DNA of 4,795 nucleotides from a virus (Duplodnaviria; Heunggongvirae; Uroviricota; Caudoviricetes): IMG/VR virus record IMGVR_UViG_2563366961_000005. One strand, given 5' to 3'. A program made the position numbers and the translations under genes. Position 1 is the first letter of the stretch. Each line of letters opens with the position of its first letter. Of this stretch, positions 3,662 to 4,705 are shown piece after piece. Below the pieces are notes generated by a model, which was not told the origin of the DNA, made no database searches, and saw only the letters and a list, made by a program, of their open reading frames with translations.

Positions 3662-4705
3662 ATGAGTGAACAAGTAGGAAGCCTCCAGATAGATATTGAC
3701 CTGAAGACAAAAAATTTACTGGTGAGCCAGCGCCAGGCTGAGGCCGCATTAGACGACATTGGCAATAAGATTGGCGGCGCAGAGCGACAAGCAGCAAAAC
3801 TTAACACGCAGCTAACAAAAACATCGCGGGCTATTAGCGGCAATCTGCGTGCCGGATTCCAGCAGGCTGGATACCAGATCCAGGACTTCGTGGTGCAGGT
3901 CCAGTCAGGACAAAGCGCACTGATAGCGTTGTCACAGCAAGGCAGTCAGTTATTGAGTGCCTTCGGTGGCTGGGGCATTGCTCTTGGTGCGGCACTTACG
4001 GTTGGTGTATCGCTGTTTAAAGCCCTGACAGGTGAAACCGAGGAGACAACAGACAAGACCGAAGTATTTGAAAAGGCTTGCAGTAATTTACGCCAGGTAA
4101 TGGCCCTGAACGAGCAAGGCGTAAACGTCCTGTCAAACGAATACGCCAACCTCGCGAAACAGTCAGCCGAGGCCGCTGCGATGGTCGAACGCCATTTAAC
4201 ACTGAAGCTACGCGAAGCCAAATCAGCGATGAGTGACTATATCACCAACACACTGGACGCACAGAACGCGACTGCGGGTTTTGGGGTGATTGGATCTGAC
4301 AGTTTACTCGACATGATGCAGGCGATGCGTGCGCTGGGCGTTGAAACGTATGATTACGCCGACGCAATGGACCAGTTGAACGGCATGGGCCTACGTGGTG
4401 CGCAGATCCATAAAGAGCTAAACCGCGAACTTGATGATATGGCAGATAAAACTGGCGTATCAAAAGAAGCGCTCTTTGATATGTGCCAGGAATTAATGGC
4501 GGTCGCTAAAGCGCCGACAGCGGACAGCATTTCAGCACTATCAAACCGCATTGCCAGCATGAACCCTACGACAGCGGAAGGTGTTGGCCTGTTTAATGAA
4601 CTACAGCAGGCATTGATTAAAGCCGCTATTGAGCTTCAACAGTTCGGGGATATTAGCGAAGATACCGCCAATAAACTTGATGTATTAAATCACGCGGCGG
4701 GGTAA
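3662..4705 (+). CDS. tail tape-measure-like protein, N-terminal 346 aa only; truncated by IS1, which supplies the final codon and stop
   Basis: Segment GYQIQDFVVQVQSGQSALIALSQQGSQLLSAFGGWGIALGAALTVG resembles the conserved N-terminal motif of tape-measure proteins such as lambda gpH (from memory). The ORF crosses the IS1 junction at 4700/4701: last codon GGG spans 4700-4702 and stop TAA at 4703-4705 lies inside the IS1 terminus GGTAATG. RBS GAGGTGA upstream. Confidence 0.6.
   Translation: MSEQVGSLQIDIDLKTKNLLVSQRQAEAALDDIGNKIGGAERQAAKLNTQLTKTSRAISGNLRAGFQQAGYQIQDFVVQVQSGQSALIALSQQGSQLLSAFGGWGIALGAALTVGVSLFKALTGETEETTDKTEVFEKACSNLRQVMALNEQGVNVLSNEYANLAKQSAEAAAMVERHLTLKLREAKSAMSDYITNTLDAQNATAGFGVIGSDSLLDMMQAMRALGVETYDYADAMDQLNGMGLRGAQIHKELNRELDDMADKTGVSKEALFDMCQELMAVAKAPTADSISALSNRIASMNPTTAEGVGLFNELQQALIKAAIELQQFGDISEDTANKLDVLNHAAG

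Follow-up and report, generated by a model that had tools for sequence, protein, structure and literature searches.

Why does the tape-measure-like gene at the right end of this viral record stop within an insertion sequence, and what became of the rest of it? The DNA at hand is a stretch of 4,795 nt, here called the window. A sequence-only reading had proposed that an IS1 insertion truncated the gene, supplied its stop codon, and left a defective tail module. After comparison with genomes that extend beyond the window, the explanation we favor, with a probability of roughly 0.88, is that the gene ends at the boundary of an approximately 14.4-kb IS1-associated deletion, in which most of the ethanolamine (eut) operon of Escherichia coli was lost as well. 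Events of this kind have long been known, and the sequences are already in public databases with annotation. The features of the window are listed in Table 1.

Table 1. Features of the window and the evidence for each
Feature	Position	Strand	Evidence
Last 91 nt of a second IS1 (insB 3′ end and IRR), facing inward	1..91	+	Inverted repeat with 4700-4791; absent in L002-L004
Native CPZ-55-family island DNA, originally between eutB and eutA of E. coli	92..4700	+	99.98% identity to L003; 97% to CEA106S
HNH endonuclease gene	160..555	+	Pfam HNH_3, E 1.3e-8, above curated cutoff; PHROG HNH families
Terminase small subunit-like gene, YffO homolog	2414..2830	+	Sf6_terminase, 32.6 bits (cutoff 27); phrog_1482, E 8e-12; 54% to YffO
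HK97 gp10-like gene (tail completion/Neck1)	3206..3652	+	phrog_5, E 4e-8; HK97-gp10_like, 21.1 bits (cutoff 21.4)
Truncated tape-measure ORF	3662..4705	+	346 native codons, hybrid GGG, IS1 TAA; profile match and uninterrupted alleles
Deletion junction, tape-measure codon 347/IRR end of IS1	4700..4701	.	L008, L007, and L001 continue differently
IRR end (95 nt) of resident IS1, other end fixed in the 3′ end of eutS	4701..4795	-	Identity to L003; SCU-172 copy 768/768

The junction and the IS1 copy behind it

The tape-measure ORF translates into 347 aa, from 346 native codons and one further base; the 346 aa of the sequence-only reading are correct for the native residues. An uninterrupted allele on a Logan contig (L008), 100% identical to window positions 3614-4700, places the boundary between native DNA and IS1 exactly at 4700/4701: after 4700, L008 reads GATTCTCAATGG, and the window reads GGTAATGACTCC. 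In the same way, L008, L007, and L001 go on ...GCGGCGGATTCTCAATGG, and the window goes on ...GCGGCGGGGTAATGAC. Codon 347 (GGG, 4700-4702) is a hybrid across the junction, and the TAA at 4703-4705 that stops the ORF is wholly IS1 sequence, so the claim that the frame crosses the junction and terminates within the IS1 terminus was borne out. The frame meets this TAA, at IS1 bases 3 to 5, by chance, giving the 347-aa product.

Window positions 4701-4795 contain the IRR end of IS1, its last 95 nt, in reverse-complement orientation. They are identical to L003 11040-11134 and show 100% identity to the first 95 nt of the 768-bp element in both L003 and L006, which RefSeq labels as “IS1-like element IS1A family transposase.” We identified IS1 by a length of 768 bp with the imperfect terminal inverted repeats GGTGATGCTGCCAACTTACTGAT and GGTAATGACTCCAACTTATTGAT, and by the genes insA and insB′, from which a programmed frameshift yields the InsAB′ transposase. 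The full copy in L003 (11040-11807) is 768 bp long and has both ends. It carries both genes, in the part outside the window, encoding 91 aa (Zn_ribbon_InsA, HTH_Tnp_IS1) and 125 aa (DDE_Tnp_IS1), and the identical copy of strain SCU-172 (L006) is described in RefSeq as “IS1A family transposase, programmed frameshift.” In L002 (11055-11752), the transposase was called as one fused 232-aa InsAB ORF, as opposed to the separate 91-aa and 125-aa genes of L003. There are 7 gap openings between L002 and L003 over 21 kb, and the fusion may be an assembly indel or homopolymer difference.

Three long loci (L002, L003, and L004) encode exactly the truncated protein and are 99.92 to 99.98% identical to window positions 92-4795. 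Between window 92-4700 and L003 6431-11039 (99.98% identity), the single difference is a synonymous one at position 1330, T versus C. All three loci have the same arrangement: past the tape-measure junction comes IS1, and then either eutS or, where the sequence runs out, a contig end within IS1. L002 and L003 are complete genomes, and in both the full 768-bp IS1 is directly followed by the eutS 3′ end on the opposite strand and then by a glycosyltransferase gene, maeB, tal, and tkt. The remainder of the tape-measure gene, for which the sequence-only reading had suggested a search beyond the right-hand IS1, is absent there in both genomes, and eutS stands in its place.

Five RefSeq E. coli genomes, SCU-172 among them, matched the chromosomal flank with 100% identity. 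The density of IS1 had suggested a Shigella origin, which was rejected on the grounds of these matches and of the E. coli names borne by all named members of the protein cluster. SCU-172 matched L003 with 100% identity over L003 positions 1-2865 and 99.99% over positions 11039-21044. Its eut operon is complete, with no island between eutB and eutA, and an IS1A lies between eutP and eutS as a simple insertion in the eutS 3′ end, flanked by the 9-bp duplication CACAAAGCG. The IS1 copies of SCU-172 and L003 are identical at 768 of 768 positions and share the same IRL-eutS junction, indicating that the tape-measure ORF ends in the IS1 copy resident at eutS. In SCU-172 (L006 19150-20060), IS1 alone replaces the last eutS codons, giving 107 aa versus 111 aa.

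Simple insertions of IS1 normally generate a 9-bp target-site duplication. At the tape-measure junction of the L003-type locus there is none, the left flank being ACGCGGCGG and the right flank CACAAAGCG. A missing duplication is the mark of deletion or recombination and does not argue against IS1.

Extent and possible routes of the proposed deletion

In these near-identical genomes, the missing interval amounts to 14,394 bp relative to the CEA106S layout (L005 1947-16340), and the deletion/eutS region of L003 lies at 11040-12126. From the island, the interval takes in codons 347-729 of the tape-measure gene, the right attachment site, and four genes downstream, among them an HTH regulator and an anti-repressor-like gene. 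The lost part of the eut operon comprises 11 genes, namely, eutA, eutH, eutG, eutJ, eutE, eutN, eutM, eutD (pta), eutT, eutQ, and eutP, together with the last 17 nt of eutS. The window itself stops 95 nt into IS1, and beyond that point its genome probably continues as L002 and L003 do, given how close these genomes are to it. A further rearrangement may have occurred in it, as there is an extra IS1 at positions 1-91 relative to L002-L004.

In the sequence of events that we propose, an IS1 would already have been resident in the 3′ end of eutS, and a CPZ-55-family island of approximately 12 kb with an intact 729-codon tape-measure gene would have been present approximately 14 kb off, between eutA and eutB. 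The IRL side of the resident IS1 would have stayed as it was, while the IRR end became linked to tape-measure codon 347, with loss of everything in between. Intramolecular replicative transposition (adjacent deletion) could have made this link, as could recombination with a short-lived second IS1 copy of like orientation. We infer that the island was gained before the deletion; either route would lead to the same end product. None of the genomes retrieved had the immediate precursor, i.e., the eutS IS1 together with an intact island of this allele, and the intact allele itself was seen only on short contigs (L007, L008, and the 10-kb contig P0026).

Adjacent deletions promoted by IS1 are classical. 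Reif and Saedler reportedly described them in the gal region in 1975, and Turlan and Chandler are said to have reported replicative intramolecular deletions by IS1 in 1995. The locus resembles such deletions in that one end of the element keeps its flank and the other joins a target nearby, with loss of the DNA in between and without a target duplication. Unlike the laboratory-selected cases, however, this one arose in nature and is fixed in a lineage of E. coli; its route may have been transposition or IS1 × IS1 recombination. Both adjacent deletion and IS-IS recombination leave IS elements without target duplications (PMC11708052).

Within the deletion explanation, a two-step route, in which a second IS1 of the same orientation entered the tape-measure gene and then recombined with the eutS copy, is possible but would take the lesser share. 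The lineage readily gains IS1 copies, as the extra one at window positions 1-91 illustrates, and target duplications are often missing because of IS-IS recombination (PMC11708052). However, none of the loci retrieved was an intermediate carrying two IS1 copies here, and two events are needed where one suffices.

A simple IS1 insertion into the tape-measure gene, with the 3′ part of the gene just beyond the element and a 9-bp duplication, fits the window equally well, as the window shows just the junction and 95 nt of IS1, and such duplications are usual for IS1, as at eutS in SCU-172. This explanation is nevertheless very improbable, since all three long loci reach eutS or a contig end inside IS1 and show no duplication, and the island-less sister strain SCU-172 has an identical IS1-eutS junction. 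The original statement that an IS1 insertion truncates the gene therefore holds for the truncation and the IS1-derived stop codon, but not for a simple insertion.

The IS1-associated deletion removed eutA to eutP, and the lineage is thus predicted to be unable to use ethanolamine. Ethanolamine use has been linked to gut and urinary-tract fitness (PMC6652756). The truncation itself carries little weight, being a textbook case of IS-mediated gene loss in a cryptic island.

The truncated tape-measure protein

Residues 1-342 of the 347-aa product matched positions 1-349 of the 811 positions of phrog_1538 (“tail length tape measure protein”), with an E value of 3e-47. The intact E. coli ortholog, from CEA106S, is 729 aa long; its residues 1-346 are identical to those of the window protein, after which it continues with DSQWVKDF..., and it matched phrog_1538 end to end (1-808/811; E 4e-96). 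We took a full-length tape-measure protein to have several hundred to more than 1000 aa and a conserved C-terminal region; the ortholog has this form, whereas the match of the window protein is confined to the N-terminal part of the profile. With Pfam TMP_2, the window protein scored 28.2 bits, below the cutoff of 30.2, and NCBIfam gave no match to any island protein, the tape-measure protein included. A tblastn search matched annotated tape-measure proteins in 477 phage records. Judged by these profiles and alleles, the window protein represents the N-terminal 47% of a real tape-measure protein, in agreement with the truncation that had been proposed.

The intact gene can be compared between CEA106S (L001 15556-17745) and strain GD33 (L014 10041-12230). 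The two copies are 87% identical in DNA and 85% in tape-measure protein, with the same architecture and the same 729-codon length, and there are no indels over the 729 codons. The dN/dS ratio was 0.17 at a dS of 0.57.

Homologs that are naturally about 350 aa long and end at the same residue would have spoken against a truncation, and none was found. In the 90% cluster, the members of 345 to 347 aa that have a source name are all named E. coli, and those of 345 to 346 aa are labeled partial. Shorter matches sit on contigs of 0.8 to 3.3 kb. That the 347-aa protein is a naturally short family member or a separate functional gene can practically be dismissed, even though it is public as a CDS that is not flagged as a pseudogene (WP_016240906.1, “phage tail length tape measure family protein”), since its last codon and stop derive from IS1, identical alleles run on to 729 aa (the uninterrupted L007, L008, and P0026 refute this explanation), each half of the intact gene shows purifying selection (dN/dS of 0.18 and 0.16), and no independent homolog in the homolog and 90% cluster searches ends near residue 346.

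At least 70 contigs encode the exact 347-aa product, and another 42 a near-identical variant of that length. All of them carry the name E. coli, so that the truncated protein is known from at least 112 contigs of this species in public databases. There it is treated as an ordinary CDS, as in WP_016240906.1, and it deserves a truncated-gene flag.

The CPZ-55-family island and its other features

The native segment of the window is 4,609 bp long and is bounded by two IS1 ends. Its best E. coli match, with 97% DNA identity, is in CEA106S, between intZ and eutA. In a megablast search, it had no match among 50,697 phage records, and a single 322-nt match was the only one found among plasmids. We assigned a CPZ-55-family island by an IntZ-type tyrosine integrase adjoining eutB, with the island between eutB and eutA. 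In L002-L004, a 401-aa integrase comes after eutB and before the window segment, and the eutA side is deleted. The eutA/eutB site is a prophage insertion hot spot (PMC6379469, PMC6652756).

The island resembles the cryptic prophage CPZ-55 of E. coli K-12 in its integration site next to eutB and in its proteins, with identities of 90% for IntZ, 93% for YffL, and 54% for YffO; the IntZ figure compares the CEA106S integrase with that of K-12 and does not extend to the L002-L004 copy. On the other hand, CPZ-55 of K-12 is 6.8 kb in size and has no gp10-like or tape-measure gene, whereas the intact relatives of the window island, in CEA106S and, at 87% DNA identity, in GD33, are approximately 12 kb in size and have both. 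The left part of these intact islands contains the integrase, an excisionase-like HTH gene, the HNH gene, and several small ORFs without an assigned role. The rest consists of the terS-like (terminase small subunit-like) gene, a 134-aa ORF, the gp10-like gene, whose ortholog is named “HK97 gp10 family phage protein” in RefSeq, the 729-aa tape-measure gene, and then small ORFs and a few regulators.

In phages, a tape-measure gene located in a tail module follows the tail tube and chaperone genes and precedes the distal tail or baseplate genes. The phage homologs are placed in this way, but the gene of the intact islands is not: it comes after the terS-like gene, the 134-aa ORF, and the gp10-like gene, and the annotation of these islands lists no capsid, portal, large terminase, tail tube, chaperone, or baseplate gene. 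It was overstated that the truncation leaves a defective tail module, as the intact relatives have only the gp10-like and tape-measure genes; the island family never had a complete tail module. In sequence, the tape-measure protein resembles those of siphoviruses of 44 to 48 kb, and the intact ortholog spans PHROG 1538. It is approximately 33% identical to gp43 (819 aa) of Cronobacter phage ENT47670 and to Klebsiella phage tape-measure proteins over the N- and C-terminal parts of these proteins. In those phages, however, the gene is part of a complete tail module, with the major tail protein on one side and minor tail proteins on the other, whereas the island gene follows the gp10-like gene. 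A Klebsiella homolog likewise lies inside a full prophage tail module.

The substitution pattern between CEA106S and GD33 indicates that the tape-measure gene is maintained under purifying selection, even though the island has no tail tube or baseplate genes. It is conceivable, but unlikely, that the approximately 12-kb islands are compact, mobilizable, satellite-like elements that exploit or remodel the tail of a helper phage, rather than decaying prophage remnants. Such a putative element would keep its own full-length tape-measure and gp10-like neck genes under purifying selection, alongside the HNH gene, the terS-like gene, and the anti-repressor-like gene. Modest hints in this direction are the architecture and 729-codon length shared by the CEA106S and GD33 copies, their dN/dS of 0.17 with no indels, and the tight or overlapping gene junctions in the window. 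The island yielded no gene for replication, capsid, or large terminase. Were the islands indeed satellites, the IS1 deletion would have disabled a functional element.

The window carries the IRR end of IS1 twice, at 4701-4795 and at 1-91, and positions 1-92 and 4700-4791 form a perfect 92-nt inverted repeat. The left copy is no part of the truncation event; it is absent from L002, L003, and L004, in which native sequence continues at this point. It interrupts the small HTH_17 excisionase-like gene (L003 6293-6469) at L003 6430/6431. Either a simple insertion or an inversion of the segment through IS1 may have placed it, as both would leave identical junctions and duplications here. With two inverted IS1 ends whose IRR face inward, the 4.6-kb segment is formally a composite transposon or an invertible segment. 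The right junction had 0 exact matches in genome_contigs, and the left junction had 0 in genome_contigs and metagenome_contigs; for the minus-strand ORF 11-166, which spans the left junction, there was no database record.

Several smaller features lie within the native segment. Four TTAGCG(A/G) repeats occur at 2343-2403, in the 83-nt gap before the terS-like gene, the first three being 11 bp apart, and are candidate protein-binding sites for packaging or regulation. Over the whole window, this motif is not enriched, with 18 matches versus 14.4 expected. The ORF at 953-1399 contains a 36-nt tandem repeat (1214-1285) that encodes TRQYF(E/D)GELDDF twice, along with further YFDG-like motifs, and the ORF at 1404-1742 ends in ..NTYF..NSYFY. 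Neither ORF had a Pfam match above the curated cutoff (GAPES3 was a weak subthreshold match), a PHROG match, or an NCBIfam match. Just after the ORF at 1763-1930, a strong hairpin is present at 1941-1961, its 9-bp stem having 6 G-C pairs, with a terminator-like score on the minus strand only.
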